This document shows, piece after piece, positions 3,150-23,860 of a DNA stretch of 64,000 nucleotides. A program made the translations under genes and the position numbers. The stretch lies in NCBI GenBank assembly GCA_040752695.1, contig JBFMGO010000011.1, forward strand, positions 6,114 to 70,113. Direction: 5' to 3'. The number at the start of each line of letters is the position of its first letter. Position 1 is the first letter of the stretch. Under the pieces are notes generated by a model. It saw only the letters and a list, made by a program, of their open reading frames with translations, had not been told where the DNA came from and ran no database searches. The DNA comes from a bacterium. Lineage in GTDB: Bacteria > SZUA-182 > DTGQ01.

Positions 3150-4664
3150 ATGAAGAGAATTTTATTGGGAATACCGGAAAAACATTCTCTCGATGCACTC
3201 TATCCACCAGTAGGATTGCTCTACCTGGCCGCTATGGCTCGAAATCAGGGCCACATGGTAAAAGTTATGGACGCTCAGGTAGTGGGGGAGGAAGCGCTTT
3301 TAACTGAATTTGTACATGGTGATTATGAATATTTCGGGACCACGATTTTGACTCCGCTGAGAGAGAGTTCCTACGCTCTTATCCGCAAGATCAAAGCCCT
3401 GAAGCATCATTGTACAGTAATTGCCGGAGGCGCTCATATTTCCATCCTCCCAAAACAAACAATGGAGCACGTTCCGGAGATTGACATTGCTGTCGCAGGA
3501 GAAGGAGAGCAAACCCTGGTGGAAATACTTTCAGGCAAAAATTTATCAGACATTCAGGGTATTTGGTACCGCCACAATGGGCAACTCGTACATACAAAAC
3601 ATCGAAAATCCTTAGATCCCGCTTTCATTCCCATGCCGGCCTGGGACCTGATCGATCTTACACCCTACCGTGCCTATGAGGATGTGATTATTGACGGTAT
3701 TTCATTTGCCGATAAGCCGTTCCTGACCATTTATTCTTCCCGTGGATGTACCGGATCATGCAGTTTCTGCTCGACGTGGTGGATATGGCGCAACTGGAGA
3801 CAGATACCGGCATCCAGATTTGTCGATGAAATCGAATACCTTTACCATCGCGGGATTGACCACTTTTTCATTGCGGATGATTCGATGATTAACAAGGAGG
3901 AGTTCGTTCATCAATTTTCCAATGAAATAATCAGGCGAAAGATCAATATCAAGTATAAAATCGCCTGTCGTGCTGATAAACTTACTTATCCTGTCGTTGA
4001 CTCACTGAAGAAATCAGGATGCTACGAAATCCATATCGGATTCGAGAGTGGCTCACAGAGAATCCTGGATTCCATAGGCAAGAAAATGAAAGTCGAGGAT
4101 AATATCCAGGCTGCCAAGCTCGTGCGAGAAGCTGGACTTCGCCTTTATGCCTTGATTATAGTCGGGGCGGTTGAAGAAGACCTTGAAACAATCAATGAAA
4201 CCATACGTTTTTTGAAAAAAATCAAACCTGATGTAGTAGCCACTATGGGGGGTCTCATGCTGCTGCCTGGCACGAGGGACTACCGGAAGGCAGTTCGTCA
4301 AGGCGTAGTGTCTGACGATTTCTGGTTAGGTCAGGAGACATTTCCCTTCTATACGAAAAATTTTTCAAAAAAGGAACTGCAACTTCTCTGCTTAGCCGTA
4401 CTCAAGCGGCAGACGATATGGTCTCGAAAACTTCTCCATCTTCAGTTTCTGCTCTGCTACCCGATGCAATACGCAAATATCATGGAAATGAACCGGGCTG
4501 CAAAAAAAACTATCTGTTTATACAGCCACTTATACAGGTTATGCAGCCACTTGTACAGGTTACACAGTCACTTATACAGGTCCTTTTCCCGCTTGATTAA
4601 CCTTTTATACATAAAAGTAAGACAAAAATCATATGAGATATTCACACCCGATTCAGCTCATTAG
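3150..4664 (+). CDS. Cobalamin (B12)-binding radical SAM domain protein (class B radical SAM, possible C-methyltransferase or other glycan-modifying enzyme)
   Basis: N-terminal B12-binding-like domain (LLYLAAMARNQGHMVKVMD...IAGGAHIS). Radical SAM cluster motif SSRGCTGSCSFC (CxxxCxxC). Elp3-like core. C-terminal tail is encoded by a 21-bp tandem repeat. Confidence 0.8.
   Translation: MKRILLGIPEKHSLDALYPPVGLLYLAAMARNQGHMVKVMDAQVVGEEALLTEFVHGDYEYFGTTILTPLRESSYALIRKIKALKHHCTVIAGGAHISILPKQTMEHVPEIDIAVAGEGEQTLVEILSGKNLSDIQGIWYRHNGQLVHTKHRKSLDPAFIPMPAWDLIDLTPYRAYEDVIIDGISFADKPFLTIYSSRGCTGSCSFCSTWWIWRNWRQIPASRFVDEIEYLYHRGIDHFFIADDSMINKEEFVHQFSNEIIRRKINIKYKIACRADKLTYPVVDSLKKSGCYEIHIGFESGSQRILDSIGKKMKVEDNIQAAKLVREAGLRLYALIIVGAVEEDLETINETIRFLKKIKPDVVATMGGLMLLPGTRDYRKAVRQGVVSDDFWLGQETFPFYTKNFSKKELQLLCLAVLKRQTIWSRKLLHLQFLLCYPMQYANIMEMNRAAKKTICLYSHLYRLCSHLYRLHSHLYRSFSRLINLLYIKVRQKSYEIFTPDSAH
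4523..4583. repeat. Three tandem 21-bp repeats (CAGYCACTTRTACAGGTTAYR), in-frame at the 3' end of the radical SAM gene
   Basis: cagccacttatacaggttatg / cagccacttgtacaggttaca / cagtcacttatacaggtcc encode LYRLCSH/LYRLHSH repeats. Confidence 0.8.
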
Positions 4665-5319
4665 ATCAGCGAAAAACGCTCGATATATTCCAAAGCATGA
4701 ATTTATACGCCTCCATGTAAAGGACAGGGATGTATTGGACTTGGGCTGCGTTGCGCATTCCCTCAGCTTCTGCCTGAATTTTCCGCATCGCTGGCTGCAT
4801 AATACCATTCGCAGTCATGCAAGGTCCGCTCTCGGTGTGGATTTACTGGAAAAAGAGATAACGGAACTACAAAAGATGGGCTATAACGTGATCTATGGGG
4901 ATGCTCAAACCTTACGGCTGGGCCGGAAATTCGATGTAGTCGTCTGCGGAGATCTGATCGAGCATGTAGCCAATCCTGCCGCCCTCCTTGACACGATGGC
5001 CTGTCACATCCAAGACGACGGAATCGCTATCGTCACTACACCAAACCCTTTTGCGATTACCCGCTTTTTTAATATCCTGGCCGATGGATGGACAGCTATT
5101 AATACGGAACACACCTTCTGGATCTGTCCTCAAACGATGTTTCAACTGGTTGATCGGTCCAGGCTGTGCGTGGCGGATTTCAGTTGGCTGAAGACAGACT
5201 TCCCCATGTTGACCACCCATCGTTTCTGGGGCCCGCTGCTCAACTCTATCGCTCCACGAATTGCCAATAAAAACCAGTTATTCCGCAACGACTACGGAGT
5301 GGTATTAAGGAAAAGGTAA
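4633..5319 (+). CDS. Class I SAM-dependent methyltransferase (Methyltransf_11/23-like, paralogue family A)
   Basis: Motif I VLDLGC..., post-II block FDVVVCGDLIEHVANP...DGIAIVTTPN. This block is shared with ORFs 20145, 20930 and 23156. Confidence 0.65.
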   Translation: MRYSHPIQLIRSAKNARYIPKHEFIRLHVKDRDVLDLGCVAHSLSFCLNFPHRWLHNTIRSHARSALGVDLLEKEITELQKMGYNVIYGDAQTLRLGRKFDVVVCGDLIEHVANPAALLDTMACHIQDDGIAIVTTPNPFAITRFFNILADGWTAINTEHTFWICPQTMFQLVDRSRLCVADFSWLKTDFPMLTTHRFWGPLLNSIAPRIANKNQLFRNDYGVVLRKR

Positions 5320-6360
5320 ATGCACTTTCAAGTTCATGGCAGGAGAAGCCCTTTTGTCTCGATTATCCTCCCGACCCGTAACCGCGCCATGTATCTCGAA
5401 GGAGCATTGCGGGCTGCCTTCGCCCAAAACTATCCTCCCGAACGTTTCGAAGTAATCGTAGTAGATAACGCATCAGTTGATGACACGTCACAGCTTGTGC
5501 GGATGCTGGCCGGGGAAGTAGAGGGAAGGATCAACATGAAATACATTCGCGAAAGCAGGGCTGGCCTGGTATTTGCGCGCCACACAGGCGCTGCCCACGC
5601 CGAAGGGGAAATCCTGCTTTTTGGCGACGATGATGCAATCTATAGCGATAACTGGATTTCTGAAATCGTAGAGGTTTACCTTCGATACCCCGAAGTAGGT
5701 GCGGTTGGTACGAAAATCGAAATCCAATGGGACCGCGATCCTGCCCCCTGGGTCCTTCGCCATGAACGGGTACTCGGTAAATTAGACTATGGACCCAAGG
5801 TGCTTGTGCGGCATGGCCTTTATATTAATGGAGGAAGCTTCTCGATTCGGAAGCAAATTCTCCTACAGGCCAAAGGCTTCAATCCGGGCCAGAAAGGAGA
5901 TTACATAATAGGGGATTCGGAAACCGGGCTCTGCCGCAAACTTGCCAGCCATGGAATTATAGTCGGATGGACGCCTGCTGCAACGATGTGGCACATTCAG
6001 CGGGCTGACGTACATGGAACGCTCCATGATATGAAACGGCGATTTAGGAACAATGGGATCTGTGAGGCTTACTATGCCACTTTTTACAACCGAAGATTCA
6101 ACGATGTCCTTTATGATATTTTTCGCAGACCATACCGGGTGCTGCGGAATTTTTTTTGCCGGATCCGTCACATGGGCTTGAAAGAACCTTGTTATGAACT
6201 GAGGCTGGAAATAGCCTATTATATTTACTATATCAAATACTTATACCTTTATCGATTTAACCGGGCAATCCGCAGCGAAGTAATGAGAACACAGGATTGG
6301 GAGTTCAGCCACAGCTACGAAGCTCCTCCGGTAGAATTCACCATTTGTCACCTGGGATGA
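5320..6360 (+). CDS. Glycosyltransferase family 2
   Basis: VSIILPTRNR...FEVIVVDNASVDDT, DxD-like FGDDD. GT-A fold signature. Confidence 0.8.
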   Translation: MHFQVHGRRSPFVSIILPTRNRAMYLEGALRAAFAQNYPPERFEVIVVDNASVDDTSQLVRMLAGEVEGRINMKYIRESRAGLVFARHTGAAHAEGEILLFGDDDAIYSDNWISEIVEVYLRYPEVGAVGTKIEIQWDRDPAPWVLRHERVLGKLDYGPKVLVRHGLYINGGSFSIRKQILLQAKGFNPGQKGDYIIGDSETGLCRKLASHGIIVGWTPAATMWHIQRADVHGTLHDMKRRFRNNGICEAYYATFYNRRFNDVLYDIFRRPYRVLRNFFCRIRHMGLKEPCYELRLEIAYYIYYIKYLYLYRFNRAIRSEVMRTQDWEFSHSYEAPPVEFTICHLG

Positions 6361-6374
6361 GGAGAAGAAAGGCA

Positions 6375-6788
6375 ATGAATTGTCCCGCTATTGAACATAT
6401 CTTCCATGAAAATTCCCTTCTCGCCATTATTATCCATTCAGATTTCCACAAAGAAGGAATCGAGTTCTTCACTCCAGACGACTATTCTCAGCAGATTGCT
6501 TATATGAATCGCCCTGCCGGTTACAGGGTAACGCCTCATATTCATAATAAACTCCAACGAGAGGTGTTTTATACCCAAGAAGTATTATTCATGAAAAGAG
6601 GTATGGTTAAGGTTGACTTTTACGATGAGCGCCGGAATCACGTAGACACCAGGATATTGAAAACAGGTGATGTGATTCTTTTGGCATCAGGTGGCCACGG
6701 ATTTGAAATGATCGAGCAGAGCGAGATCATAGAAGTCAAGCAGGGCCCTTACGCAGGTGACAACGATAAAACCAGGTTTTCAGCCTGA
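6375..6788 (+). CDS. Cupin-fold sugar 3,4-ketoisomerase (FdtA/QdtA/Tyl1a, WxcM-like domain)
   Basis: 138 aa from the internal ATG at 6375, preceded by GGAGAAGAAAGG RBS. The longer ORF from 6297 overlaps the upstream gene. Motifs NRPAGYRVTPHIHNK and GDVILLASGGHGFEMIE are typical of the small cupin NDP-4-keto-6-deoxyhexose 3,4-isomerases. Confidence 0.6.
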   Translation: MNCPAIEHIFHENSLLAIIIHSDFHKEGIEFFTPDDYSQQIAYMNRPAGYRVTPHIHNKLQREVFYTQEVLFMKRGMVKVDFYDERRNHVDTRILKTGDVILLASGGHGFEMIEQSEIIEVKQGPYAGDNDKTRFSA

Positions 6789-6793: not shown

Positions 6794-8059
6794 ATGAATA
6801 ACCATATGCCAGTAAACGAAATACCAGTAAACGAACCTTTATTAAATGGCCGCGAGAAAGAATTTCTCTGTAAATGCATCGATACTGGCTGGATTTCTTC
6901 GGATGGGCCTTTTGTCAGGGAATTTGAAGAGCGGTTTGCCTCTTATATAGGGAGAGGCTATGGCATAGCGGTCTGTAATGGGACAGCAGCGCTCGAGACA
7001 GCCTTCTATGCGACTGGTATCGAAGAGGGAGACCAGGTAATCATGCCTACATTCACCATCATCTCCTGTGCTATGGCAGCGATGAGGCTGGGTGCTAAAC
7101 CTGTACTGGTAGATATTGAGCCGGAAACGTGGTGCATGGATGTCAGGCAATTGGAATCCAAAGTCGATGCTGAAATGAAAAACGGCAACGAAGGACTGAA
7201 GGCGATTATGCCGGTGCATATTTATGGACACCCTGTTGATATGGACCCGGTGGTGAAGGTGGCGCAACGCTATGGATTGAGGATCATAGAGGATGCCGCC
7301 GAGGTGCACGGCGCTGAGTATCTGAGCAGACTCCTGCCTGAAGATAAGCCCGATACTGTTACCAATATATCCAATTCCAATATATCCAGTATGGAGGATA
7401 GGAATAAAGAAAGGGAAACTTGCGGAACCTGGAAAAAGTGCGCGAGTATGGGGCATGCGGCTGCGTTTTCCTTCTATGCCAATAAAATTATAACTACAGG
7501 CGAGGGGGGCATGGTTGTCACCAATGACCCGCTGATGGCAGAGCGTGCCAGGTCTTATAGAAACTTATCTTTCAGGCCCGATAAGCGCTTTTATCATACC
7601 GAGCCCGGGTATAACTTCAGGATGACCAGTCTCCAGGCAGCCATAGGGTTGGCTCAGTTGGAAAGGATCGAGGAATTTATTACCATAAAACGCCATTTAG
7701 GCGCTTACTATCGAGAGCGACTGGCTGCTGTTCCAGGAGTTCGCTTCCAGGCCGAAAAACCCTGGGCGAGGCCGGTTTACTGGATGTACGCCATAGAGCT
7801 TGATCCTGAACTTGGTATCGATGCTGAAACCGTGAGAGTCCGGCTCAAAGAGAACAATATCGGTACACGCCCCTTCTTTCTGGGACTTCACGCCCAGCCT
7901 GTGCTCAGGCAAATGGGGCTTCATCCGGATGAAAGCTCCTACCCAAATGCGGATCGGGCTTATAAATACGGTCTTTATCTGCCTTCCGGCCTGACCATGA
8001 CCGAAGAAAAAGTCGATGTGGTGTGCACTGCCCTGGCAACGGTACTCAACCAGAGGTAG
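6794..8059 (+). CDS. DegT/DnrJ/EryC1/StrS-family PLP-dependent NDP-sugar aminotransferase, with an unusual about 34-aa internal insertion
   Basis: N-terminal LNGREKEFLCKCIDTGWISSDGPFVREFEERFASYIG, PLP-lysine region FSFYANKIITTGEGGMVVTND, C-terminal RPVYWMYAIEL. Confidence 0.85.
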   Translation: MNNHMPVNEIPVNEPLLNGREKEFLCKCIDTGWISSDGPFVREFEERFASYIGRGYGIAVCNGTAALETAFYATGIEEGDQVIMPTFTIISCAMAAMRLGAKPVLVDIEPETWCMDVRQLESKVDAEMKNGNEGLKAIMPVHIYGHPVDMDPVVKVAQRYGLRIIEDAAEVHGAEYLSRLLPEDKPDTVTNISNSNISSMEDRNKERETCGTWKKCASMGHAAAFSFYANKIITTGEGGMVVTNDPLMAERARSYRNLSFRPDKRFYHTEPGYNFRMTSLQAAIGLAQLERIEEFITIKRHLGAYYRERLAAVPGVRFQAEKPWARPVYWMYAIELDPELGIDAETVRVRLKENNIGTRPFFLGLHAQPVLRQMGLHPDESSYPNADRAYKYGLYLPSGLTMTEEKVDVVCTALATVLNQR

Positions 8060-8062: not shown

Positions 8063-8192
8063 GATAATAGCGGTAGATAGACAGTGAAAGCAGACAGCCG
8101 ATGAAAATAGGTAGGCAATGGCGGCAGACAGACAATGGCGGCAGATAGACAGTGGAAATAGACAGACAGGGGAGGTAGACAGACAATGGCGG
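8063..8192. repeat. Degenerate AGACAGA-rich tandem repeats, including three copies of (c)agacagacaATGGCGG; the last copy carries the methyltransferase start codon
   Basis: caatggcggcagacagacaatggcggcagatagacagtgg ... gtagacagacaatggcgg. Confidence 0.75.
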
Positions 8193-8968
8193 TTTTCGAT
8201 CTCTATGGCCGGTATTATAATCTTCTCTACGAGGATAAGGATTATGCCGCAGAGGTGGCTTATATCGATCGGCTCATCAACAAATATGCCCTTCATGCGA
8301 AAACAGTACTGGATCTTGGCTGCGGTACAGGCAGCCATGATCTGCTGCTGGTCGAAAAGGGATACAGGGTCACCGGGTTAGATATGTCTTTGGCTATGCT
8401 GACAGAGGCACAAGCCAGGCTCGAAAAAGCCGCCAGGTCCTGCGGGGCTTCAGTTTTTGATTCCCTTGCCTTTTACCAGGCCGATATTCGCAGCGTACGC
8501 CTTGACCGGACCTTTGATGTGGCAATATCTCTTTTCCATGTTATGAGTTATCAAATAACCAATGCCGATCTTCAGCAGACCTTTGAGACAGTTAAAGCGC
8601 ATTTGAATCCAGGGGGCATATTTATCTTTGATTGCTGGTACGGTCCCGGAGTACTGACAGAACCTCCGGCAATACGGATTAAGGAACTGGAAGGTGAGAA
8701 CATTTCCGTGATGCGCATTGCCAAACCGATAACGTATCCTCATGAGAATGTGGTAGATGTGAATTACCGGGTCTGCATCTTTGACAAGAGTACACAACGT
8801 ATGGAAGAATTCCGGGAGTGCCATCGCATGCGTTATTTGTTCAAACCGGAGATTGACCTGTTTTTGGACCAGGCAGGTTTTCAGTCAAGGGGTTTCTTTG
8901 AGTTTATGAAGAATGAAGAGCCTGGCCGCGGAGCCTGGAATGTCTGTTTCGTGAATCAAAGGCTGTAA
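8186..8968 (+). CDS. SAM-dependent methyltransferase, TylM1/DesVI-like (NDP-amino-sugar N-methyltransferase family)
   Basis: 260 aa. N-terminal YYNLLYEDKDYAAEVAYIDRLI, then motif I VLDLGCGTGSH, ...FDCWYGP. Overall layout parallels TylM1 (YDLVH..KDY...LLDVACGTGMH...VEPWW). Confidence 0.6.
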   Translation: MAVFDLYGRYYNLLYEDKDYAAEVAYIDRLINKYALHAKTVLDLGCGTGSHDLLLVEKGYRVTGLDMSLAMLTEAQARLEKAARSCGASVFDSLAFYQADIRSVRLDRTFDVAISLFHVMSYQITNADLQQTFETVKAHLNPGGIFIFDCWYGPGVLTEPPAIRIKELEGENISVMRIAKPITYPHENVVDVNYRVCIFDKSTQRMEEFRECHRMRYLFKPEIDLFLDQAGFQSRGFFEFMKNEEPGRGAWNVCFVNQRL

Positions 8969-9019: not shown

Positions 9020-10657
9020 ATGAAGATTGGAAATTCTTTGGAAATTCTGATGAAAAAAAACCTGCCATTGCTTATTACGACCTTTATCATTGCTGTTTTC
9101 TCATTTTGGCGGTTTTTCCTGATCGTGTCTCTCCCTCCGGAAGATTTAGTAACAATAACTACCGATGACGCTTTTTACTATATGAATATCGCTTCTCATA
9201 TCGCCAGCGGACACGGAGCCACGTTTGACGGCATAAATAAAACCAATGGCTTTCATCCCCTGTGGCAACTCATGTTAATTCCCGTCTACAGGCTCATTCC
9301 TTCCAACCGTCTCCTGGCCTTGCGTGTTACTCTGATTTTTCAGCTTCTGGTTTTTATCTCTATACTCATTCTTACAATCCGGTTTACCTGCCGCATCTAT
9401 GGGGCTATAGCTCTGTTTCCGATCCTGATCGTATTTCTGTTCTCCGGCTTCAGCAATTGTCTTCTTGAGGGAATGGAAACTCCCATTCACCTCGTTATCC
9501 TGGCACTGATAATAGTATATATGACTGAAACCTGGTCTGTTCATCATCCCACCCTGCCCAAGGATGCCACTTTAGGCATTTTGATAGGCTTGCTTACCCT
9601 GGCACGTCTTGAGTCCTTTTTGATCCTTTTCTCATGCCTCGTTTTTATGGCCTGGTATCGTTTATCGAATAAGCTTCAGCTTCTTCACTTCGTGGTGCGG
9701 GCGATCAGGATAACTGCACCTGTGACCATGCTTGTTCTGCCTTTTCTTATCTGGAATAAAATTAATTTTGGCCATTTTGCAACCATCAGTTCTCGGTTGA
9801 AAAGCACTTTTCCGCACCTTTCCTTTAAGCCGTCGCTTTTTCTGAGATATCCTCAATGGGCAGCCCTGGTGATCGTTACCCTGTTATTTTTCCTCATTCT
9901 TGTTTTCGGAAGATACTTTAAGACCGGACAAAGGATACTTCAGGAAATGTCCCAACCCTATCAAAACGCGTCGCTGATATACTGTCTGTATGTCCTTATG
10001 CACTTTTCATTTATCCTTTTGTTTTCACGGTGGGAAATAGGAGGCTGGTATTTTGCACCTTATCTTCTGGTTATACCTTTATCAAGCGGCCCGGTTATAT
10101 CGGCTCTCAGAAAAAGTTCTTATTCTGCCAGGCTTAGGCCGGTGTTTGTTTTTATCATCATTCTGGGGCTGGGGTTGGATATATCCATGCAATGCCTTTC
10201 GCTTCGGTATCGGCTTAACGGTTATGCAAATAGTTTTCACCGGCCCTCGTATAGAGCAGCACTATGGGCGAAACAAAACATTCCAAAGGGTGCGGTTTTT
10301 GCGACGACTGACTGTGGCGTGTTCGGCTATTTTTCTGAGCGTTCAGTCATTGAGCTGGATGGAATAGTGAATAATTTCGAGTATCAGGAATGGCTCCTGA
10401 AAAGAGGTCTCAAAGATTATCTCTTCCATAAAGGAGTAAATTATATCAGGGACTACGCTTCCCTGGCACCTGAAAAATACAATCAGTTTCAATACACCAT
10501 CCGGAGCAAAATCGACAGGGACTTTTACAGCAGTATTTCCCTCTCTCCATCGGATGAACGATACCGTTCCAGTTCCTTTGAACATTTAAGTAAAAATAAA
10601 TGTCAGGTTATATGGAATTTTCCCCGCTCCATAGTTCACAGGGATGTTGAAAAGTGA
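9020..10657 (+). CDS. Polytopic membrane protein, putative GT-C-fold glycosyltransferase (ArnT/PMT-like) with C-terminal soluble domain
   Basis: At least 10 predicted TM helices in the first about 380 aa. Acidic loop motif TTDDAFYY after TM1, as in GT-C enzymes. About 160-aa hydrophilic C-terminus. Confidence 0.4.
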   Translation: MKIGNSLEILMKKNLPLLITTFIIAVFSFWRFFLIVSLPPEDLVTITTDDAFYYMNIASHIASGHGATFDGINKTNGFHPLWQLMLIPVYRLIPSNRLLALRVTLIFQLLVFISILILTIRFTCRIYGAIALFPILIVFLFSGFSNCLLEGMETPIHLVILALIIVYMTETWSVHHPTLPKDATLGILIGLLTLARLESFLILFSCLVFMAWYRLSNKLQLLHFVVRAIRITAPVTMLVLPFLIWNKINFGHFATISSRLKSTFPHLSFKPSLFLRYPQWAALVIVTLLFFLILVFGRYFKTGQRILQEMSQPYQNASLIYCLYVLMHFSFILLFSRWEIGGWYFAPYLLVIPLSSGPVISALRKSSYSARLRPVFVFIIILGLGLDISMQCLSLRYRLNGYANSFHRPSYRAALWAKQNIPKGAVFATTDCGVFGYFSERSVIELDGIVNNFEYQEWLLKRGLKDYLFHKGVNYIRDYASLAPEKYNQFQYTIRSKIDRDFYSSISLSPSDERYRSSSFEHLSKNKCQVIWNFPRSIVHRDVEK

Positions 10658-11826
10658 AAAAGCGGATTGCGATCGTATATCCGTGGGGGAATTTGGACAC
10701 CGTACCGAGTCTGTGTAATGCTGCCGAACTATTGGCAAATACAGGATATGAAGTCGAGATTTTCACTTACCTTAATCCCCGGTTTATAGGGCCATCATTT
10801 TCCCATAAGTCCATAATGATCGTTACTCCCCGCCCTAGATGGGAAAGACAAGGCATTCATCGCCTTATTCCTGCCCGATGGTCTTATCCTTTGCAGATTT
10901 GGCAACGGCACTTGCGCTGCCGCTATCGTTGCTTTATCGGGGTAGATCCTGAAGGATTAGTGCAGGCTGGCTGGCTGTCCAGATGGATTACCGTGCCGCT
11001 TGTTTATTATTCGCTGGAATTGCTCCTTTCGGGGGAGATAGCGCTTGCGGAACAAAGCCAATTGAAGCGGGCTGAAAAAAGACTCAGCCACAGGGCTGCA
11101 TTCATTATTATTCAGGATGAGGAAAGGGCCCGGTTAATGGCGGAAGATAATGATGTTCCTCTTGATCGGTTTGTCCTGGTACCGAATACTCCGCAGGGAC
11201 CAGCCAGGCGGCAGTATTCAGGTTACTGGCATAAAAAATTAGGGCTGCCGGAGCGCTGCCGGATCGTCCTTCATGCCGGAAGCATAGAGAATTGGACCGG
11301 ATTAAAAGAAATTGTGGATTCAGTGAAGGAGTGGCCGGAGGATTGGGTTCTGGTCATCCATTCCCGCTCCTATTATCAGCATTCCGGTTTTATGGAAGAA
11401 TTGCGCAGGCAAGCCCCTGAAGGCCGTGTCTTCTTCTCGCTCAAGCCGGTTTCCCGGCAGGATTACGATGCCTTGATTCATGGTGCGGACATCGGCATCG
11501 CATTTTATGTCCCCTCGGAAGGGTCTGTATATACTCAGCAAAACATCCGAAGTGTCGGTTTATCATCAGGAAAAATCGCCTATTACCTGCGGGCAGGATT
11601 GCCTGTGATTGCCAATGACCAAACCTCTATCGGTACTTTCATCAATCAGGAGAAATGCGGCCTTGTTATCCAATCGCCAGATGAGATCGGTGAGGCTATC
11701 GTTACTATCGTCCATGACTACGACAGCTACAGCAAACGGTCCCTTCAAGCTTTTGACCGCCATCTGGATTTCACTCATGGTTTTCATCGAGTAACAAGAT
11801 GGATCGATTCTCTCGAGGAAAGATGA
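10654..11826 (+). CDS. Putative glycosyltransferase, divergent GT-B fold
   Basis: Start overlaps the upstream stop (ATGA-type). N-terminal MKKRIAIVYPWGN is Rossmann-like. The C-terminal half is GT-B-like. The family is not certain. Confidence 0.45.
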   Translation: MKKRIAIVYPWGNLDTVPSLCNAAELLANTGYEVEIFTYLNPRFIGPSFSHKSIMIVTPRPRWERQGIHRLIPARWSYPLQIWQRHLRCRYRCFIGVDPEGLVQAGWLSRWITVPLVYYSLELLLSGEIALAEQSQLKRAEKRLSHRAAFIIIQDEERARLMAEDNDVPLDRFVLVPNTPQGPARRQYSGYWHKKLGLPERCRIVLHAGSIENWTGLKEIVDSVKEWPEDWVLVIHSRSYYQHSGFMEELRRQAPEGRVFFSLKPVSRQDYDALIHGADIGIAFYVPSEGSVYTQQNIRSVGLSSGKIAYYLRAGLPVIANDQTSIGTFINQEKCGLVIQSPDEIGEAIVTIVHDYDSYSKRSLQAFDRHLDFTHGFHRVTRWIDSLEER

Positions 11827-16394: not shown

Positions 16395-17615
16395 GTGGAC
16401 AGGGTGGAAAGCAGGTTCCCAAAAAGTGACTTGCAGAAAGTGATGCTCATAACCCGATTGTCTCCATACCGCCCGAACAATGGAACAGTGACGCTGCTGC
16501 ATCGAATCGCAGGGCTGTTTCAAGAACCCTGGCTCACTTGGGTATCGCTGGATAATGAAAAGACAGGGTGCACTCTTTCTCAAATCGAAATTCTATCCTG
16601 TCCGCCTCCGGGAAAACCTTACAGGCTGGTTGCAGGTCGATGGGGATCTTTTTGGTGTGAACGGTTTTGGGGTGAATTGACAGCACGGAAACTGGCTTAT
16701 TACTGCCGGCTCTTTTCCATCGATCGAATCTGGACACTGGCAGAGGAGCGAGCCGGATTCGTCGGCCGAAGACTGGCACAAATAACGGGTCTGCCGCTGC
16801 ATGTCACTATTCATGATCACCCTATGCGTTCCTGTCAATTGAACCCGGATGTGCCCCTATGGCATGTTATCCGCACCAAACGGCACTGCAGGGCGCTTCT
16901 GCGTGCAGCGAATTCGGTCGATACCGTCTCGTTTTCCCTGGCTGACTATGTCCGGCAGAAAACCCTGGCCCAGGTAAGAATTTATCCGCCACAGGTTTAC
17001 AGGGCCAAATCTCCTCCTTTACAGAGAAAGTCAGATGGAGTATTCCGAATCGGCTTTTGCGGTGAATGCCATACAGGCAGCAACGAAATAAAAGTTTTTT
17101 TATCCTGGCTGAAAAAAATTGGAGGGAAGTTCGAATTTCATGCATTTGGCAGCAGGTCTTTGCCAGCAGGGGTCGAAAGTGAGATGAAACAATTTGGAAA
17201 TACCGTCTATCATGCCTTTGAACCGGATTGGGACCGATACATTTCAGCCCTCGGTACCGTAGATTGCTTCTACATCGGAGCATGGTTTTCCCCGAATATG
17301 GACCTCACGGTACGGTATTCATTTCCAAGCAAGACAGGCCCTGTATTGGCGGCAGGCATTCCCATCATTGCTCATGGACCCGGGACATGGGAACTTCACA
17401 AATGGCTAAACCTGATCCCTTTCGGTTTTGCGATTGAAAGCATCGATGAAAACAGGCCGCCAAAATCATTATACGATTTTATCCGGTTTCCCGATAACCG
17501 GCAGTACTTTGCCAGAGCTGCCGCCATAGCCTTCCAGCGCTGGTTCCAACTGCCCGATGACCGTGATAATCGTATCGGGATTTTGCCCTGGCAACCCAAG
17601 GCCGGTATTTTATAA
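16395..17615 (+). CDS. Hypothetical protein, possible divergent GT-B glycosyltransferase
   Basis: 406-aa ORF. The true start may be M17 (about 16443). C-terminal GPVLAAGIPIIAHGPGTWE resembles the GT-B C-domain. No EX7E motif. Confidence 0.35.
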   Translation: MDRVESRFPKSDLQKVMLITRLSPYRPNNGTVTLLHRIAGLFQEPWLTWVSLDNEKTGCTLSQIEILSCPPPGKPYRLVAGRWGSFWCERFWGELTARKLAYYCRLFSIDRIWTLAEERAGFVGRRLAQITGLPLHVTIHDHPMRSCQLNPDVPLWHVIRTKRHCRALLRAANSVDTVSFSLADYVRQKTLAQVRIYPPQVYRAKSPPLQRKSDGVFRIGFCGECHTGSNEIKVFLSWLKKIGGKFEFHAFGSRSLPAGVESEMKQFGNTVYHAFEPDWDRYISALGTVDCFYIGAWFSPNMDLTVRYSFPSKTGPVLAAGIPIIAHGPGTWELHKWLNLIPFGFAIESIDENRPPKSLYDFIRFPDNRQYFARAAAIAFQRWFQLPDDRDNRIGILPWQPKAGIL

Positions 17616-17630: not shown

Positions 17631-18911
17631 ATGTACTTTTTATACATAATTTATATTATCTTAATTTTTATCCGGCCACAGGATTGGGTCCCCGTGATAT
17701 TGGATATGCGATTACTCAATCCGGTCGGCGCCGCTCTTATTTTATGTTTTCTTATGCGTTTTTATGGAAAAAGGATTGACCGGCAATCACCTTTCAGCAA
17801 ACTGACCGTACTTTTTGTATTATCTGTCATCCTTTCCCCTATTCTCAGCTCTGGCTATATTCATGGCGCGATCGATTCATTCTGGGCCATGCTGCCTCTC
17901 CTGACCCTGACCATAGCCGGAGTCGAATCTATCCGAAGCTGGGAAAAACTCCGTCTGGTCCTTACTGTTCTCATATCATGTACTATCTTAGCGAGTGTCA
18001 ATTCGATCTTGCAGATGTCAAGAGGGGTGGGATTTTATGGAATCATGCCGATACAGGAGTCCTACGGCGTGCGCGTTCAGGCATTTGGTATCTTTAATAA
18101 TCCTAATAACCTGGCGCTCCTCCATGCCATGATCATACCACTGCTCCTGGGTGCGTTGCTGTGGCCAGGCTTAATGCCGCGCGTGCTGACTCTGCCTTTA
18201 CTTATCATCAATCTTGTCTCACTTTATGAAACCCGCTCCCGCGGCGGCCAAATGGCAGCTATGGCCGGGCTCTTCGCCTTTGTGCTGACAACAGGCCGGG
18301 GCAGCAAGAAACTTTTTTGGGGTAATGCGCTCTGCATTCTTTTCCTTATCATGATCCTTCCCCATATACAGCGAAAGTCGATCGATACGCATCATGGCTC
18401 CGAACGAGGCCGTATGGAGGCCTGGAGTTTCGGCTTATCAACTTTCAAGAAAAAGCCATTTGCAGGTCTCGGGTATGGCATGTGGAGAGAGCATTGGAAA
18501 CTGGATACCCACAGTTCATATGTGCTCAGTTTCGCCGAGACAGGACTCGTGGGATTTTATTTTTTTATCGGGATGCTGTTCCTGGGGATCAAGGATTCCT
18601 GGCGGTTAGGCGGGCTGAAACGCGAACCATCCGATCCAGGGGAATTCGTCTGGTATATCAATCTTGGGCATTGCCTTTTTGCTGCACTTATTGTCTATCT
18701 GGTGGCATCTTTATTTCAAACCAGAACGTATTACCTTCCGCTCTATCTTTACCTGACTATGATTGCCGCCATTACCAACCTGATCAGAGTGAATCATGAA
18801 GCAGATCAGTACTTTTACAGCCTTGAGCATGATTGGATGAAAACAGGGATCCTGGCAGCGGAGAGCATTGCAGGAATCTATCTTTTCACCAGAACCCTCT
18901 GGCGGTGGTGA
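17631..18911 (+). CDS. O-antigen ligase/polymerase family membrane protein (Wzy_C domain)
   Basis: About 11 TM helices. ...SRGGQMAAMAGLF...SFAETGLVGFYFFIGMLF is typical of the Wzy_C/O-antigen ligase domain. Confidence 0.7.
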   Translation: MYFLYIIYIILIFIRPQDWVPVILDMRLLNPVGAALILCFLMRFYGKRIDRQSPFSKLTVLFVLSVILSPILSSGYIHGAIDSFWAMLPLLTLTIAGVESIRSWEKLRLVLTVLISCTILASVNSILQMSRGVGFYGIMPIQESYGVRVQAFGIFNNPNNLALLHAMIIPLLLGALLWPGLMPRVLTLPLLIINLVSLYETRSRGGQMAAMAGLFAFVLTTGRGSKKLFWGNALCILFLIMILPHIQRKSIDTHHGSERGRMEAWSFGLSTFKKKPFAGLGYGMWREHWKLDTHSSYVLSFAETGLVGFYFFIGMLFLGIKDSWRLGGLKREPSDPGEFVWYINLGHCLFAALIVYLVASLFQTRTYYLPLYLYLTMIAAITNLIRVNHEADQYFYSLEHDWMKTGILAAESIAGIYLFTRTLWRW

Positions 18912-19018: not shown

Positions 19019-20170
19019 ATGAGATCCGAAAAAACAATCCTTCAGGTTCTCCATTTTATACCACGCAACAAGCGCAGTATGGAACTATTTTTGCTGCGGC
19101 TGAACAAAGAAATCGTACAAAATGGCTGGAGCCATATTCTCGTCCTCGAACCACCGGTGCCGTACTGGTTTCGGAACGAAATTGAAAAGGATGGCGGGTC
19201 CATTGTTCTGTTTTCCTTTCCCTTGAGGTTTACCTCTGCGGTCAGTCTCCTGCGTATCCTGATAAAGCATCAGCCGGATGTACTCCATGCGCACTTTATT
19301 TCACCTTTTAATCCCTGGATACACTTAATAAAGAAGATATCCCCCGGCTGCTGCCTGATTTATACGGATCATAGCTCCGGCAATATACGCAAAAAATCTG
19401 CCATATCAGAGTACATTTCGTTTGTAAGAGGAAAATTGGCAAGCATGTCTTTTAACCGGCTCATAGCTGTTTCGGATTATGTTGCGGAGCGTGATATAAA
19501 GCAGGCTCATCTATCCGGAAGAAAGGTGATACGCATTTATAACGGAAATGGCATCGACATCGAAAGCCGGTTTCCAGTCCGGTCATCCGAAGATGAAGAT
19601 TATCGGGAATCCGGGCCTGTCCGAGTAACCTTTGTTGGACGGCTCATCAGGAAAAAGGGTGTCATGACTCTGCTCCGGGCGTTTAAACAGGTAAGGCAAA
19701 CGGTTACTATTCCCGTTGAATTAGTGATAGCTGGCAAAGGACCCATGGAGAGCGAGCTTCGCTCATATTGCTCGAAGGAGGGTCTGACTGACGTCGAGTT
19801 TCCCGGATATGTCAGCGATATTGCTGACCTTTTCTCAAGGGCGGACATTGTCGTGGTCCCATCGGAATGGGACGAAGCCTTTGGATTTACGGTCGTGGAA
19901 GGTATGGCTGCCGGTGCGGCTGTTTTGGGTTCGGATGCAGGGGGAATCCCTGAAATCCTGGGCTGCCGGCCAGAGGCCGGCCTGGTATTCAAAAGGGGGA
20001 ATGAGGGTGATCTGGCCTGTAAGCTTAGACAATTAGTTGAAAACCCTTCATTAAGGCAGGCCCTGGGGCGCTCTGCCCGAGAGCGGGTCGAGGCATTTTT
20101 CACTCTTGATTCCATGGTCAGGGGCTATTTGGAAGTCTACCGGAATGTTCTCTTATCTAACCAGATCTGA
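19019..20170 (+). CDS. Glycosyltransferase family 4
   Basis: VRVTFVGRLIRKKG...EAFGFTVVEGMAAGAAVLGSDAGGIPEIL. Confidence 0.8.
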   Translation: MRSEKTILQVLHFIPRNKRSMELFLLRLNKEIVQNGWSHILVLEPPVPYWFRNEIEKDGGSIVLFSFPLRFTSAVSLLRILIKHQPDVLHAHFISPFNPWIHLIKKISPGCCLIYTDHSSGNIRKKSAISEYISFVRGKLASMSFNRLIAVSDYVAERDIKQAHLSGRKVIRIYNGNGIDIESRFPVRSSEDEDYRESGPVRVTFVGRLIRKKGVMTLLRAFKQVRQTVTIPVELVIAGKGPMESELRSYCSKEGLTDVEFPGYVSDIADLFSRADIVVVPSEWDEAFGFTVVEGMAAGAAVLGSDAGGIPEILGCRPEAGLVFKRGNEGDLACKLRQLVENPSLRQALGRSARERVEAFFTLDSMVRGYLEVYRNVLLSNQI

Positions 20171-20879
20171 AGATATCAGTGAAGCAAGGCTGCACCTCGA
20201 GAGAGCCGGTCTGGGCTGCTTCGGGCGGGAATGGCTGACCGAGAATATCTGGCGACTGCTTTTCCGTCTTATTGCTCATTCATGGCCTGAGAGAATCGAT
20301 ATCGGCAAGAGCTGGGACATTCAGCAGGTAATCGGTATCATCAAAAAGGGATGGGTCGGCAAATCGGCCAAAATACTCGATGCCGGATGCTGGAATTCCG
20401 AGATCCTCCAGACCTTATACCGGGCCGGATTCCGGAATCTGTGGGGGTGTGATCTGAACCCTCTGGTCCATTGGCAGCGCCGTTTCTGGAAGACGAGATA
20501 TTCGATCCAGGATATCACCGCAACCAATTATCCGAACCGCATTTTTGAGATGGTTACCTGTCTGTCTGTCATCGAACATGGAGTCGATATTGAGCAGTTT
20601 TTTGTTGAAATGTCAAGGATAATCGCTTCCGGCGGATATCTCCTTTTGACCTTTGATTACTATCCGGAATCTATCGATACTGAAGGAATCACAGCCTTCG
20701 GGCTGCCCTGGCATATTTTCGATAACCATGATGTCGGTCAGATGCTGAAGGCTGCACAAGCACTGGGCTTTTTTCCTATCGACAGGGTCCGGCTGCCGGA
20801 AAAGATCCCATCTCCTGTCTCCTGGCATGGAAGATCTTATACCGTTGGCTTTCTGGGGTTGAAAAAAGCCGATAACTGA
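20145..20879 (+). CDS. Class I SAM-dependent methyltransferase (paralogue family A)
   Basis: Start taken at the internal ATG (the longer ORF from 20106 overlaps the upstream gene by 65 nt). KILDAGCWNSE...FEMVTCLSVIEHGVD...GGYLLLTF. Confidence 0.6.
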   Translation: MFSYLTRSEDISEARLHLERAGLGCFGREWLTENIWRLLFRLIAHSWPERIDIGKSWDIQQVIGIIKKGWVGKSAKILDAGCWNSEILQTLYRAGFRNLWGCDLNPLVHWQRRFWKTRYSIQDITATNYPNRIFEMVTCLSVIEHGVDIEQFFVEMSRIIASGGYLLLTFDYYPESIDTEGITAFGLPWHIFDNHDVGQMLKAAQALGFFPIDRVRLPEKIPSPVSWHGRSYTVGFLGLKKADN

Positions 20880-20929: not shown

Positions 20930-21820
20930 ATGAAAAAATTCAATTTAAAGAAAGTATCCAATTCCATACAGCAGACATGTTTTGATGTGGACAGGTACAT
21001 AACTGGCCAACCGGAAGCTGATGCCGAATTCTGGAGTAAAGCCAACTCGATCAGACATGCCTACACTATCCTGGAGATCGTTCGTTATGCAAAAAAGAAA
21101 GACAAAAACTTTCTGAAAATCCTCAATGCTTCCGGACTCTCCTGCGGTCACCAGGATTTTTCGATAGCAACTTTTCTTCGAGAGCAAACGGCTATCCGTT
21201 TCAAATGGATAGCCTATGAAAGCCCGCACAGTGAATATCTGAGCAATGATAGATTCAAATCTTATATTTCGGATTTACAAATAAATCTCAGATTATCCGA
21301 TTGGAACCAATCTCCTGGTTTATATGGAGAAGATAGTGATTTCGATGTGGTAATCTTTACCGAAATTGTGGAACATCTCGATCATTCTACCCTGTTAAAA
21401 TGCCTCATGGCCATAAGGGAAAGGATGAGAGATGACGGTATATTGGTAATAACAACACCGAATTCGGTGAGTCTGATAAACAGAATCAAAATCTTGCTTG
21501 CCAATGGAGACGATCTCTATTGGGGTGATGGAAGGCAGAATTACGAGAGGGGCTTATACGGCCACATTGCAGCTTTTGATTTGAGGAGAATGGAAAGGTT
21601 ATTGGAAGATACGGGCTATCGCAGTTGCGAAGCTTTTACTTTTACCTATAAACCGTATACCTTCGCCTGCAATCGTACCTCAAACGCTATCGGCATCATC
21701 AAGTTCACGGTATATAGGGCCATCGATTTTCTGTCGCAATTTGGGAATACCATGGGAAGGTCACTGTTCATCGTTGCTGAAAAATGCGATGAGGCTAAGG
21801 AAATTCCCTTTCAAATATAG
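20930..21820 (+). CDS. Class I SAM-dependent methyltransferase (paralogue family A)
   Basis: FDVVIFTEIVEHLDHSTLLKCLMAIRERMRDDGILVITTPN is the same block as in ORFs 4633 and 23156. Confidence 0.65.
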   Translation: MKKFNLKKVSNSIQQTCFDVDRYITGQPEADAEFWSKANSIRHAYTILEIVRYAKKKDKNFLKILNASGLSCGHQDFSIATFLREQTAIRFKWIAYESPHSEYLSNDRFKSYISDLQINLRLSDWNQSPGLYGEDSDFDVVIFTEIVEHLDHSTLLKCLMAIRERMRDDGILVITTPNSVSLINRIKILLANGDDLYWGDGRQNYERGLYGHIAAFDLRRMERLLEDTGYRSCEAFTFTYKPYTFACNRTSNAIGIIKFTVYRAIDFLSQFGNTMGRSLFIVAEKCDEAKEIPFQI

Positions 21821-21886
21821 GTCGAATAAGAACAGTGCTCTTATATTCTCTCATCAGTCATCAGCCGCTTACCTTCTTCTGAAACT

Positions 21887-23140
21887 ATGCGTATTCTGTT
21901 CATAACGCCAACCTTTCCCCCTCAGCATTGCGATATCGGCAATCACACTTTCCGGCTGGCTCAAGCGATCGGGCAGTACGGGCATGAATCCGCTGTTATT
22001 ACCAGAGCAGGCGATATTAACGGAGCCGGCAGCAGGGGTGAGGTATATAACGTCATCGGAAGGTGGGACTTTTCCTGCCTGAAACCGATTTACCGAACGA
22101 TCAACGATTGGCGACCGGATATTGTCCATCTTCAGTACGAAGAGGCCGCGTTTCGAGGCGAGGCAGCAATTTGCTTCCTTCCCCTTCTTCTTTGGAAAAA
22201 GGGAATCCCCTGTTGCGTGACCCTTCACGAGGCATGCCCGCCGTTTTTTTGGCATGGAGCAGTCCGTGTCCGCCTTGGCGGGAAGATCAAGTTTCCCTGG
22301 CTGGATCTGATTCCGCCTGGAATCCTCTCAAGAGCAGGTTTTTCACCGGCAGCCTTGAGCAGGCACCGCACTTCAGCACTCAAATCATTATTGGGGTGCG
22401 CATCGCGGATTATCGTATCGAATCAAGAGGGAAAAGATTTTGTCACACCTTTTGTGACCAGGAAAAGAAATATCGTGTCCATACCTATGGGAACAGGGAT
22501 TGCCGTGGCCGAAAGAAGCGAACCTGAAAAAATAAACCACCTTCGCCTGCCATCCGGCAAGTTCCTGATGATTTATTTAGGTTATCTCCTCCCTTCAAAA
22601 GGCATCGGTGAGCTGATTGAAGCGATGGGCTTACTGAAAACCGAACCTGTTCACTTGATCATCATGGGCGGTAAGAACGAATTTATGCCTGAGGCCGATT
22701 ACCGGAAAATGCTGGAAGTATGGAAAGGCAGGGCCGATGAATTGGGAATTTCCGAATGTATCACCTGGACCGGTTTCATTGATGAAAGAACGGCATCTCA
22801 GCTCTTGCCAAGAGCCAGGATAGCGGTGCTGCCGTTCCGTGATGGAGCTGTGTTTAAACGGTCCAGTCTGATGACAGCAATTGCGCATGGTCTGCCAATT
22901 GTCACCACGGAAGGAAAATTCACGACCGCTGATGTGCGCACCTTAAGGAGCGTTGTCTTTGTCAGACCGGGGGATTCTCAGGGATTGGCGGAAAAATGCC
23001 GGCAGATTATCCGCTCGGATCAGGAGTACAGCCAGCTTCGGATACAAGCCAAAGTCTTGCAGGAAAAATTCTCCTGGCAGGCTATCGCAGTCAGGACAGC
23101 CGGAATTTATCATGAATTGGCGGGAATAAGTCTATCATAA
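21887..23140 (+). CDS. Glycosyltransferase family 4
   Basis: MRILFITPTFPP..., C-terminal GT-B domain. Confidence 0.8.
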   Translation: MRILFITPTFPPQHCDIGNHTFRLAQAIGQYGHESAVITRAGDINGAGSRGEVYNVIGRWDFSCLKPIYRTINDWRPDIVHLQYEEAAFRGEAAICFLPLLLWKKGIPCCVTLHEACPPFFWHGAVRVRLGGKIKFPWLDLIPPGILSRAGFSPAALSRHRTSALKSLLGCASRIIVSNQEGKDFVTPFVTRKRNIVSIPMGTGIAVAERSEPEKINHLRLPSGKFLMIYLGYLLPSKGIGELIEAMGLLKTEPVHLIIMGGKNEFMPEADYRKMLEVWKGRADELGISECITWTGFIDERTASQLLPRARIAVLPFRDGAVFKRSSLMTAIAHGLPIVTTEGKFTTADVRTLRSVVFVRPGDSQGLAEKCRQIIRSDQEYSQLRIQAKVLQEKFSWQAIAVRTAGIYHELAGISLS

Positions 23141-23155
23141 TAATAGGGAAAAATT

Positions 23156-23860
23156 ATGAATAACTTAGATGGAAATATTCGAGAACGGGCCATTCCAGGA
23201 GTACATCAAGCTGTTTTCAACAAAATTACCAAATGCTTTCCCGAACCAAAAGACATTTGCATTCTGGACCTTGGTGCCGGCGAGGGGGCCATGTCAAAAC
23301 GGCTGGCTTCAGCAGGCTATTATGTCGAAGCAACCGAGATTTCAGAGGGAAGATTCCAGGTCAATCCTGTGCCATGTCATTGCCTTGATTTGAACAAAGA
23401 CTTTGCTCAATTATTTAACCAAAAGTTCAATGCAATTGTAGCTATTGAAATTATTGAACATCTTGAAAACCCTCGTCATTTTCTGAAAAATTGCCGGCAA
23501 TTATTGGATGAATCGGGAATTCTCTTTCTTACATCGCCAAACGTCGAGTCATGGAATTCACGTCTTATTTTTTTGAAGCATGGCAGATTCCAGTTTTTCG
23601 GTGATGTTGATTATCAGAATAACGGGCACATTACTCCACTGTTTTCCTGGCAGATCGAGCAGATTTTAAATGAGACGGATTTTAAGCTCCTTCACAGGGC
23701 CGGACTGAACGAAAGATTTGTCTGGCATCTTGCCTATAGTTATTCCGGGTATCCCCCGATGACTTTCTTGATAAAGCTCGTCCTATGGTGCTCTTTAGGC
23801 CTGCACTTTCGGAAAAATACCCAGGGTGCTACAAACCTTTTCATCGCAGGCGCCCGCTAG
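23156..23860 (+). CDS. Class I SAM-dependent methyltransferase (paralogue family A)
   Basis: ILDLGAGEGAMSKRLASAGYYV...FNAIVAIEIIEHLENP...GILFLTSPN. Confidence 0.65.
   Translation: MNNLDGNIRERAIPGVHQAVFNKITKCFPEPKDICILDLGAGEGAMSKRLASAGYYVEATEISEGRFQVNPVPCHCLDLNKDFAQLFNQKFNAIVAIEIIEHLENPRHFLKNCRQLLDESGILFLTSPNVESWNSRLIFLKHGRFQFFGDVDYQNNGHITPLFSWQIEQILNETDFKLLHRAGLNERFVWHLAYSYSGYPPMTFLIKLVLWCSLGLHFRKNTQGATNLFIAGAR

Follow-up and report, generated by a model that had tools for sequence, protein, structure and literature searches.

The window, i.e., the whole stretch of 64,000 nucleotides analysed here (contig JBFMGO010000011.1 of an uncultivated bacterium), carries a long run of 28 open reading frames (ORFs), all of them on the + strand between positions 50 and 29527 and separated by gaps of 126 nucleotides or less, with a single exception of 334 nucleotides. 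This run encodes a glycan exporter of the ATP-binding cassette (ABC) type, about eleven glycosyltransferases and six methyltransferases that use S-adenosylmethionine (SAM), and we read it as one large co-directional cluster of 29 kb for a cell-surface glycan, methyl-rich but otherwise ordinary, a reading to which we assign a probability of roughly 0.6. The roles of the enzymes are deduced below from gene content, predicted folds, family relationships and synteny. The genes on which the argument turns are the following, where MT followed by a start coordinate stands for a methyltransferase:

801..1703, + strand: Wzm, ABC-2 permease of the glycan exporter (ABC2_membrane, E 1.6e-18)
1821..3119, + strand: Wzt, ATPase with a C-terminal carbohydrate-binding domain (ABC_tran and Wzt_C, the latter with 55.8 bits, cut-off 30.4)
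3150..4664, + strand: B12-binding radical-SAM enzyme (B12-binding and Radical_SAM Pfam domains)
4633..5319, + strand: MT4633, class I methyltransferase (Methyltransf_23, E 1e-10)
5320..6360, + strand: GT2 glycosyltransferase downstream of MT4633 (Glycos_transf_2, E 4e-26)
6297..6788, + strand: small cupin-like protein, start codon uncertain (WbuC-family cupin, 25.9 bits, a weak match below cut-off)
6794..8059, + strand: sugar aminotransferase dependent on pyridoxal phosphate (PLP) (DegT_DnrJ_EryC1, E 4e-105)
8186..8968, + strand: MT8186, DesVI/TylM1-like amino-sugar N-methyltransferase (Methyltransf_25, E 1e-17; also Methyltransf_11)
10654..11826, + strand: GT4 glycosyltransferase (Glyco_trans_4_4 and Glyco_trans_1_4)
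11871..12650, + strand: FkbM-family methyltransferase, FkbM11871 (PF05050, E 3.6e-16, 60.2 bits, cut-off 22.7)
20145..20879, + strand: MT20145, class I methyltransferase (Methyltransf_11, E 2e-9)
20930..21820, + strand: MT20930, methyltransferase of a small unannotated family (Methyltransf_23, E 1e-7, residues 127-231 only)
23156..23860, + strand: MT23156, canonical class I methyltransferase (Methyltransf_23, E 1.4e-16 over the full model)

A preliminary description of this DNA had named these six methyltransferases, and all six ORFs are indeed there, on the + strand and at the positions it gave, each of them matching methyltransferase models. The label of FkbM proposed for the ORF at 11871 is borne out by PF05050 and TIGR01444, both above their curated cut-offs (73.4 bits for TIGR01444, with a cut-off of 37.7), as well as by a match to the FkbM structure 2py6 in the PDB (E 6e-4) and a 36% identical homologue in L006, one of the loci fetched from other genomes for comparison. 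In the same way, the TylM1-like label of MT8186 agrees with full-length alignments to DesVI (3bxo, E 1e-17, residues 6-249) and TylM1 (3pfg, E 1.8e-14, residues 10-250), and the other four proteins match either Methyltransf_23 or Methyltransf_11. The count of about eleven glycosyltransferases also stands, with ten supported by Pfam plus a weak candidate (16395) and the fragment of an initiating Bac_transf enzyme. Given six SAM methyltransferase genes and these glycosyltransferases, it is reasonable to expect from the gene content that the glycan is methylated at several positions, and a multiply methylated surface glycan is a plausible product of the locus.

A further claim concerned the origin of the set. 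Four of the proteins (MT4633, MT20145, MT20930 and MT23156) were taken as paralogues rather than generic methyltransferases, which would have arisen by duplication and diverged to act at different positions of a polymethylated polysaccharide like the mycobacterial methylglucose lipopolysaccharide and methylmannose polysaccharide (MGLP/MMP). The group-specific block offered as the hallmark of the four, F(D/N)xVx5(I/L)EHxxNP...G(I/L)xxxT(T/S)PN, is matched completely in ORF 4633 only; ORFs 20930 and 23156 keep its second half together with a relaxed first half, and ORF 20145 just the xVx5IEH portion. Moreover, the same block turns up in unrelated solved methyltransferases, such as 3cc8 (FDCVIFGDVLEHLFDP...GVILASIPN), 3dli and the selenoneine enzyme OvsM, and in all four ORFs it coincides with the segment aligned with TIGR01983, the UbiG model. 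Judging from these alignments, the block is the motif II-III region that defines Pfam Methyltransf_23/UbiG-like enzymes. A motif scan of the fetched loci returned MT4633 orthologues only, and it is the PDB alignments that reveal the generic nature of the block.

Direct comparisons lead in the same direction. Global pairwise identity among the four is 25-27%, and BLAST comparisons scaled to a realistic database size yield E values of 1e-3, 0.019 and 0.44, with no match at all for ORF 20145. Each family profile scores its own member with 270-453 bits and the other methyltransferases of the window with 11-50 bits; MT20145 is as remote from the profiles of the others as the TylM1-like MT8186. Each of the four has relatives in other phyla with 37-74% identity, and when placed in a pool of 297 such foreign relatives, the co-resident methyltransferases rank only between the 61st and the 291st positions. 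Four homologue searches, one per protein, recovered the window protein itself and foreign relatives, but never another methyltransferase of the window. The claimed paralogues thus have far closer relatives elsewhere than among themselves. A distant affinity does exist: MT4633, MT20930 and MT23156 score 33-50 bits against each other's family profiles, the structural models of MT4633 and MT20930 share their top neighbours (3cc8, 2p7h, 3dli and 3l8d), and the UbiG model is matched by all four in the same region. These three would represent at most anciently diverged branches of the Methyltransf_23 clade, not a duplicated set, and a recent duplication of the four is contradicted by the comparisons above. 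As the exporter genes also speak against a cytoplasmic polymer of the MGLP/MMP type, we regard the whole duplication model as highly improbable. The six methyltransferases belong to separate lineages, gathered by shuffling of gene modules and not by duplication within the cluster.

Each lineage has its own peculiarities. MT4633 (228 residues) shows an atypical motif I, LDLGCVAHS, and a WLH insertion conserved in the family alignment; its family comprises 119 clusters, including Elusimicrobia and Verrucomicrobia, with relatives of up to 62% identity. MT20145 has an N-terminal extension of 70 residues, the motif I ILDAGCWNS and relatives in 14 clusters only (best identity 37%); a 31% identical homologue in L065 adjoins a homologue of MT20930. 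In MT20930 the family alignment reveals an invariant LNASGLSCGHQDF at the place where the glycine loop of motif I is expected; its relatives, 65-38% identical, form 14 clusters among 5.8 billion proteins and include Firestonebacteria and Parcubacteria. MT23156, with the motif I LDLGAGEG, belongs to a much more populated family with 8463 representative clusters at E<=1e-3 (best identity 74%, then 45%).

Such loops raise the question of whether some of MT4633, MT20145 and MT20930 are sugar methyltransferases at all, or instead inactive scaffolds or enzymes that methylate a non-sugar substituent or the lipid carrier. The glycine-rich loop is replaced in the three of them (by LDLGCVAHS, ILDAGCWNS and LNASGLSCGHQDF, respectively), their NCBIfam matches are all far below cut-off, their best PDB neighbours are uncharacterised proteins from structural genomics, and they lack a characterised close relative. 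Structure models were made with AlphaFold2 (AF2) for the two most atypical proteins, MT20930 and MT4633, and the SAM-binding fold, whose absence from structure predictions the preliminary description had named as fatal to its proposal, is present in both. The MT20930 model is a seven-stranded methyltransferase fold (pLDDT 74.8, pTM 0.76) with 840 matches to PDB methyltransferases at E<=1e-3; the MT4633 model (pLDDT 95.3, pTM 0.91) has 989 such matches, with 3cc8 at the top. Both predicted folds are complete, with seven strands. Pfam matches in all five non-FkbM proteins, together with an acidic residue after strand 2 that is conserved in the MT20930 and MT4633 families, are those of class I methyltransferases. 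Within each family the substituted loop residues, this acidic residue and the (E/D)H of motif II are invariant or nearly so, which argues for selection on a working site, and glycan biosynthesis is the consistent genomic context of these atypical proteins. We consequently see a non-sugar or inactive role as improbable, and we infer catalytic activity of the atypical enzymes only from the fact that their loop and acidic residue are conserved.

The first 11-12 kb of the run form a conserved cassette in the order Wzm, Wzt with its binding domain, B12 radical-SAM enzyme, MT4633, GT2, cupin, aminotransferase, MT8186 and GT4. This cassette recurs in collinear order, at 35-67% identity, in at least four other metagenomic genomes: L007 (a metagenome-assembled genome of Nitrospirae), L058, L097 and, for the most part, L005 and L009. 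In L007 the identities are 35% for Wzm, 59% for Wzt, 60% for the radical-SAM enzyme, 57% for the methyltransferase, 47% for GT2, 67% for the cupin, 51% for the aminotransferase and 40% for the N-methyltransferase. Taken gene by gene, Wzm orthologues are 35-59% identical (L005, L007, L009, L010, L058 and L097), those of the GT2 enzyme at 5320 47-57% (L005, L007, L009 and L097) and those of the cupin at 6297 42-67% (L005, L007, L058 and L097); in L058 the cupin match (2967-3353) lies inside a called gene of the Epimerase family with 495 residues (1896-3383), to which it is apparently fused. MT8186 orthologues (37-40%) occur beside the aminotransferase in L005, L007 and L058, and a 30% identical orthologue of the GT4 gene at 10654 follows the MT8186 homologue in L058. 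The window differs from L058 by a gene at 9020-10657, inserted between MT8186 and GT4 and missing at the syntenic position there. Downstream, the region of 12.7-29.5 kb has no collinear counterpart in the compared loci and holds GT4 and GT2 genes, a Wzy_C protein and the three remaining methyltransferases, with FkbM11871 at the border.

The central genes of the cassette suggest an amino-sugar branch. The closest solved relative of the aminotransferase is GDP-perosamine synthase (3dr7/3bn1, E 6e-77), versus 1e-44 for ArnB and 1e-40 for QdtB. A pathway for a 3-amino sugar linked to deoxythymidine diphosphate (dTDP), formed by the aminotransferase, the cupin and MT8186, had been entertained and was dropped, since QdtB is a far more distant match of the aminotransferase than GDP-perosamine synthase. 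The aminotransferase would make a nucleotide-linked amino-6-deoxyhexose, which MT8186 would N-methylate, probably up to the dimethylamine, before its transfer to the glycan. The cupin at 6297, for which neither PDB sequences nor Pfam gave any match, is a candidate ketoisomerase or epimerase.

The exporter itself is of a well-known kind, with the O-antigen transporter Wzt of A. aeolicus (8dku, E 3e-66) as best PDB match of the Wzt protein. Binding domains of Wzt proteins read a methyl, methyl-phosphate or Kdo (3-deoxy-D-manno-octulosonate) cap, which stops elongation and licenses export (PMC9445017, PMC3482155, PMC11231755); the one of A. aeolicus reads a 3-O-methyl cap (PMC9445017). In this regard, the position of MT4633 is suggestive. 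The genes follow the order wzm-wzt-radical-SAM-MT4633, the stop of the radical-SAM gene overlaps the start of MT4633, and the MT4633 gene is linked to an exporter in nine of the 13 distinct contexts examined for its orthologues (eight of 12 besides the window). It stands after wzt in the window, L005, L006, L007, L009, L010, L058 and L097, and between wzm and wzt in L094/L095. MT4633 thus shares with terminators of the WbdD type the location beside wzm and a wzt carrying a carbohydrate-binding domain. We propose that MT4633 would methylate the nascent lipid-linked glycan and, in loci with Wzt, plausibly form a non-reducing-end cap read by the Wzt binding domain, as happens in E. coli O8 or A. 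aeolicus. FkbM11871, MT20145, MT20930 and MT23156 would O-methylate single sugars of the repeat unit at the cytoplasmic face, together with the neighbouring glycosyltransferases. Wzm/Wzt would then export the finished glycan, with the Wzy_C protein as its possible ligase.

Several observations weigh against this picture of a single glycan with a methyl cap. Two close orthologues of MT4633 (59-61% identity; L059 and L060) follow a Wzx flippase and not Wzt, which fits poorly with an exclusive role as chain terminator; an earlier view of MT4633 as a pure chain terminator was softened after orthologues were found beside Wzx flippases. Two other contexts, L008 and L096, show no visible exporter gene, although both are short contigs. 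Characterised terminators carry a coiled-coil ruler (PMC11231755) that MT4633 lacks, and the WbdD-type architecture is found in none of the six proteins, all of which are 296 residues or shorter, with the methyltransferase fold filling the whole length. WbdD appears neither among the PDB sequence matches (E<=1) nor among the 50 best fold matches. Three of the methyltransferases depart from the canonical glycine loop, and sequence gives neither substrate nor regiochemistry. As to the amino sugar, a GDP-mannose dehydratase and a nucleotidyltransferase were not found in the window, so that its pathway is incomplete here. The window was also devoid of any detected Wzx flippase, and the Wzy_C gene and the convergent Wza/Wzc genes leave room for more than one polymer. 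The genes that bear on this last point, with the rest of the run, are:

50..466, + strand: C-terminal part of an initiating polyprenyl-phosphate sugar transferase, a gene that begins before the window (Bac_transf, E 9e-46)
9020..10657, + strand: polytopic membrane protein of 545 residues with about 9-10 hydrophobic segments (hydropathy scan)
12728-13930, 14041-15090 and 15103-16344, + strand: three glycosyltransferases (Glycos_transf_1 / Glyco_transf_4)
16395..17615, + strand: soluble protein, possibly a divergent GT4 (weak Glyco_trans_4_4 only, E 0.014)
17631..18911, + strand: Wzy_C-family membrane protein of the O-antigen ligase or polymerase type (Wzy_C, E 1.2e-15; nine hydrophobic segments; weak TIGR03097)
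19019..20170, + strand: GT4 glycosyltransferase (Glycos_transf_1, E 1.4e-36)
21887..23140, + strand: GT4 glycosyltransferase (Glyco_trans_1_4, E 9e-16)
23905-25086, + strand: GT4 (Pfam match)
25077-26285, + strand: membrane-anchored GT2 (Pfam match; four hydrophobic segments)
26932-27669 and 27702-28346, + strand: split GT4, whose N-domain and C-domain lie in separate ORFs of different frames (Glyco_trans_4_4, then Glycos_transf_1)
29621-31807, - strand: Wzc-type tyrosine autokinase/co-polymerase (Wzz and AAA_31; TIGR01007 above cut-off)
31861-32703, - strand: Wza-type export protein (Poly_export and SLBB)

Two adjacent systems could lie here, one for an ABC-dependent glycan (about 800-12650, with MT4633, MT8186 and FkbM11871) and another for an exopolysaccharide of the Wzy/Wza/Wzc type (about 12700-32700, with MT20145, MT20930 and MT23156), in which case the methyl groups would be divided between two polymers. 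Collinearity with other genomes is limited to the first part. The second part holds the Wzy_C protein, abuts Wzc and Wza, whose genes lie directly downstream of the main run and convergent to it, and is flanked by markers of the PEP-CTERM/XrtA type, namely a protein that scores above the TIGR03016 cut-off and another of the PEP-CTERM kind; besides, Wzx/Wzc/Wza loci harbour relatives of MT20930 as well as close orthologues of MT4633. On the other hand, a Wzx flippase went undetected throughout the window, all genes between 50 and 29527 run in one direction with short gaps, a convincing terminator is missing between the two parts, and Wza and Wzc are encoded on the opposite strand. A scan for promoters and terminators gave counts close to the shuffled expectation and no clear operon boundary. 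Besides, the Wzy_C family also covers O-antigen ligases, and ABC-dependent pathways need such ligases. A division into two systems is possible but, in our estimate, rather unlikely, and we keep the reading of one cluster.

Returning to the conserved cassette of that cluster, the gene between wzt and MT4633 deserves separate comment. The radical-SAM enzyme matches PF02310 and PF04055 above cut-off, carries the cluster motif CTGSCSFC and has the domain composition of class B enzymes. Its matches to NCBIfam subfamilies are all far below cut-off, the best being the non-methylating BchE and HpnJ, and the nearest PDB structures are AprD4, a sugar diol-dehydratase, as the closest, and also OxsB and TokK. 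With a sequence placed outside the subfamilies that define methyl transfer, the protein cannot be called a methylase. Orthologues with 59-61% identity are found in L007, L058 and L097, and they lack a counterpart of the C-terminal tail of the window protein, a stretch of about 45 residues that derives from a 21-nucleotide tandem repeat (4518-4581), lies in frame and includes SHLYRL three times. In two metagenomic contigs, L073 (8075-10968) and L074 (6158-9051), a gene of the MT20930 family is followed about 2 kb downstream by a tandem pair of B12 radical-SAM genes, both with 27% identity to that of the window.

The distribution of this gene runs parallel to that of the Wzt binding domain. In all linked loci the ATPase domain of Wzt shares 58-70% identity with that of the window. 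Conservation of the binding domain, in contrast, is confined to L007, L058 and L097 (45-54% identity, E 1e-50 to 1e-58), the very loci that carry a radical-SAM orthologue; its identity falls to 18-30% in L005, L006, L009, L010 and L095, where the radical-SAM gene is absent, replaced or non-orthologous. L005 is instructive in this respect: it keeps the methyltransferase (62%), GT2 (57%) and amino-sugar genes, but the radical-SAM gene is replaced there by one for 398 residues, whose protein gave no Pfam match, and the binding domain has diverged. One could imagine that binding domain, radical-SAM enzyme and MT4633 form a trio in which radical-SAM chemistry builds a new cap at the non-reducing end, read by a co-evolving binding domain. 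Such a proposal is speculative and, in our opinion, unlikely to be correct; the pattern comes from a small sample of loci that are not independent of each other, and the binding domain may track the polymer and not the cap. A literature search for O-antigen or ABC-transporter loci that contain B12 radical-SAM enzymes returned nothing relevant. If true, the link would extend the known chain-end caps (methyl, methyl-phosphate and Kdo), and it provides a testable hint of a B12 radical-SAM enzyme connected with the epitope that a transporter binding domain recognises.

Other features of the run and its surroundings complete the description. The fragment of 138 residues at 50-466 has as best NCBIfam match TIGR03013, of the XrtA/PEP-CTERM-system type (241 bits). 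The membrane protein encoded at 9020-10657 matched nothing in Pfam or NCBIfam. An ORF at 26298-27023, also without a family match, encodes one N-terminal hydrophobic segment followed by three cysteine-rich units of 22 residues (PTFVGATCNTTCGLRAGC...) that correspond to a 66-nucleotide tandem repeat. In the split GT4 (26932-28346), a stop codon and a gap of 32 nucleotides, both read directly in the sequence, separate the two ORFs; a pseudogene with a frameshift, a truly split enzyme or an error of the assembly could each account for this. The flanks at 32802-36351 and 58977-60416 encode a second Wzy_C protein (689 residues), the TIGR03016 outer-membrane protein mentioned above and a sigma-54 response regulator near the model of PEP-CTERM-box regulators, and judging from these matches the neighbourhood is an exopolysaccharide region with markers of the PEP-CTERM/XrtA type. 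On the - strand, a protein of 3736 residues with at least 12 PKD domains and FG-GAP repeats (47215-58425) adjoins another of 285 residues with a terminal PEP-CTERM motif (46265-47122). A third group of genes, also on the - strand (37033-44340), encodes a 3-dehydroquinate-synthase-like enzyme, a xylose-isomerase-like TIM barrel, a type I phosphodiesterase, a UbiA prenyltransferase, a TatD-like hydrolase and a squalene-hopene-cyclase-like protein, and may represent a cyclitol or prenyl-lipid pathway. Throughout the window, tandem-repeat arrays with periods of 11-22 nucleotides and 2.5-6.7 copies, with a different unit in each, occur at or beside many gene junctions:

1707-1781, 3115-3162, 4518-4581, 8090-8192, 12660-12710, 18975-19030, 29552-29626, 38225-38330, 39491-39616, 42986-43045 and 44871-44950: tandem-repeat arrays

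The preliminary description had also considered polymethylated polysaccharides as rare outside a few groups, a view that does not hold at the gene level, where glycan loci with three to five methyltransferase domains recur in uncultivated lineages. L001 (Firestonebacteria) encodes five of them plus a B12 radical-SAM gene, L003 (Parcubacteria) and L060 three each, L006 (Verrucomicrobia) at least three and L058 two or three. The relatives of MT20930 (L001, L003 and L061-L091) are found in glycosyltransferase-rich loci in most of the contigs long enough to judge. Loci of this kind also contain glycosyltransferase-methyltransferase fusions, as seen in L001 (7044-9029, 661 residues) and L060 (2661-4694, 677 residues), which hold relatives of MT20930 and MT4633, respectively; these proteins suggest a physical coupling of glycosyl transfer with methylation in such systems. 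Methyltransferase-rich glycan loci are then already known, and that of the window is another example. Its interest lies elsewhere, in a portable cassette, common to distant uncultivated phyla and joined to a Wzm/Wzt exporter, whose product is probably an amino sugar with N-methylation, and in two methyltransferase families, poorly annotated and with non-canonical SAM loops, whose members are tied to the synthesis of glycans, one of these families being as scarce as the 14 clusters described above.

How does this locus compare with known systems? The analogy with the mycobacterial MGLP/MMP is weak. Those are cytoplasmic polymers made by small dedicated clusters that are not known to include exporters, whereas the present locus encodes Wzm/Wzt, with Wza/Wzc next door, and the likeness is confined to several methyltransferases acting on one glycan; the PDB matches of the window methyltransferases gave no sequence link to MGLP/MMP enzymes. 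A closer parallel is that of DesVI and TylM1 from macrolide pathways, to which MT8186 aligns over its full length; the MT8186 gene stands beside that of a PLP-dependent sugar aminotransferase. The context here, however, is a polysaccharide and not a macrolide, sequence identity is low, and the partner is perosamine-synthase-like (C-4 amination of a GDP sugar) in contrast with the C-3 aminotransferases of dTDP sugars.

The arrangement of E. coli O8/O9a (wzm-wzt-wbdD) and the WzmWzt of A. aeolicus resemble the window in combining Wzm with a Wzt that has a C-terminal binding domain, and the exporter-linked methyltransferase gene occupies here the position of wbdD in E. coli (PMC3482155). Terminators of the WbdD type are methyltransferases, with or without a kinase, fused to a coiled-coil ruler and to a C-terminus that is a membrane part or recruits the polymerase (PMC3482155, PMC11231755). 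MT4633, in contrast, is a stand-alone protein of 228 residues that lacks kinase, ruler and membrane anchor and has no detectable sequence similarity to WbdD; moreover, a B12 radical-SAM gene stands here between wzt and the methyltransferase, and MT4633 orthologues are also found beside Wzx. Small stand-alone methyltransferases do occur in an ABC-dependent O-antigen locus, that of the P. aeruginosa common polysaccharide antigen (CPA) (PMC3560663). Its two ruler-less enzymes, PA5457 and PA5459, have partly redundant roles, and the product carries methylated sugars (PMC3560663). The likeness to CPA is one of gene arrangement and offers a precedent for the present locus, which goes further with six methyltransferases and a cassette for the N-methylation of an amino sugar.

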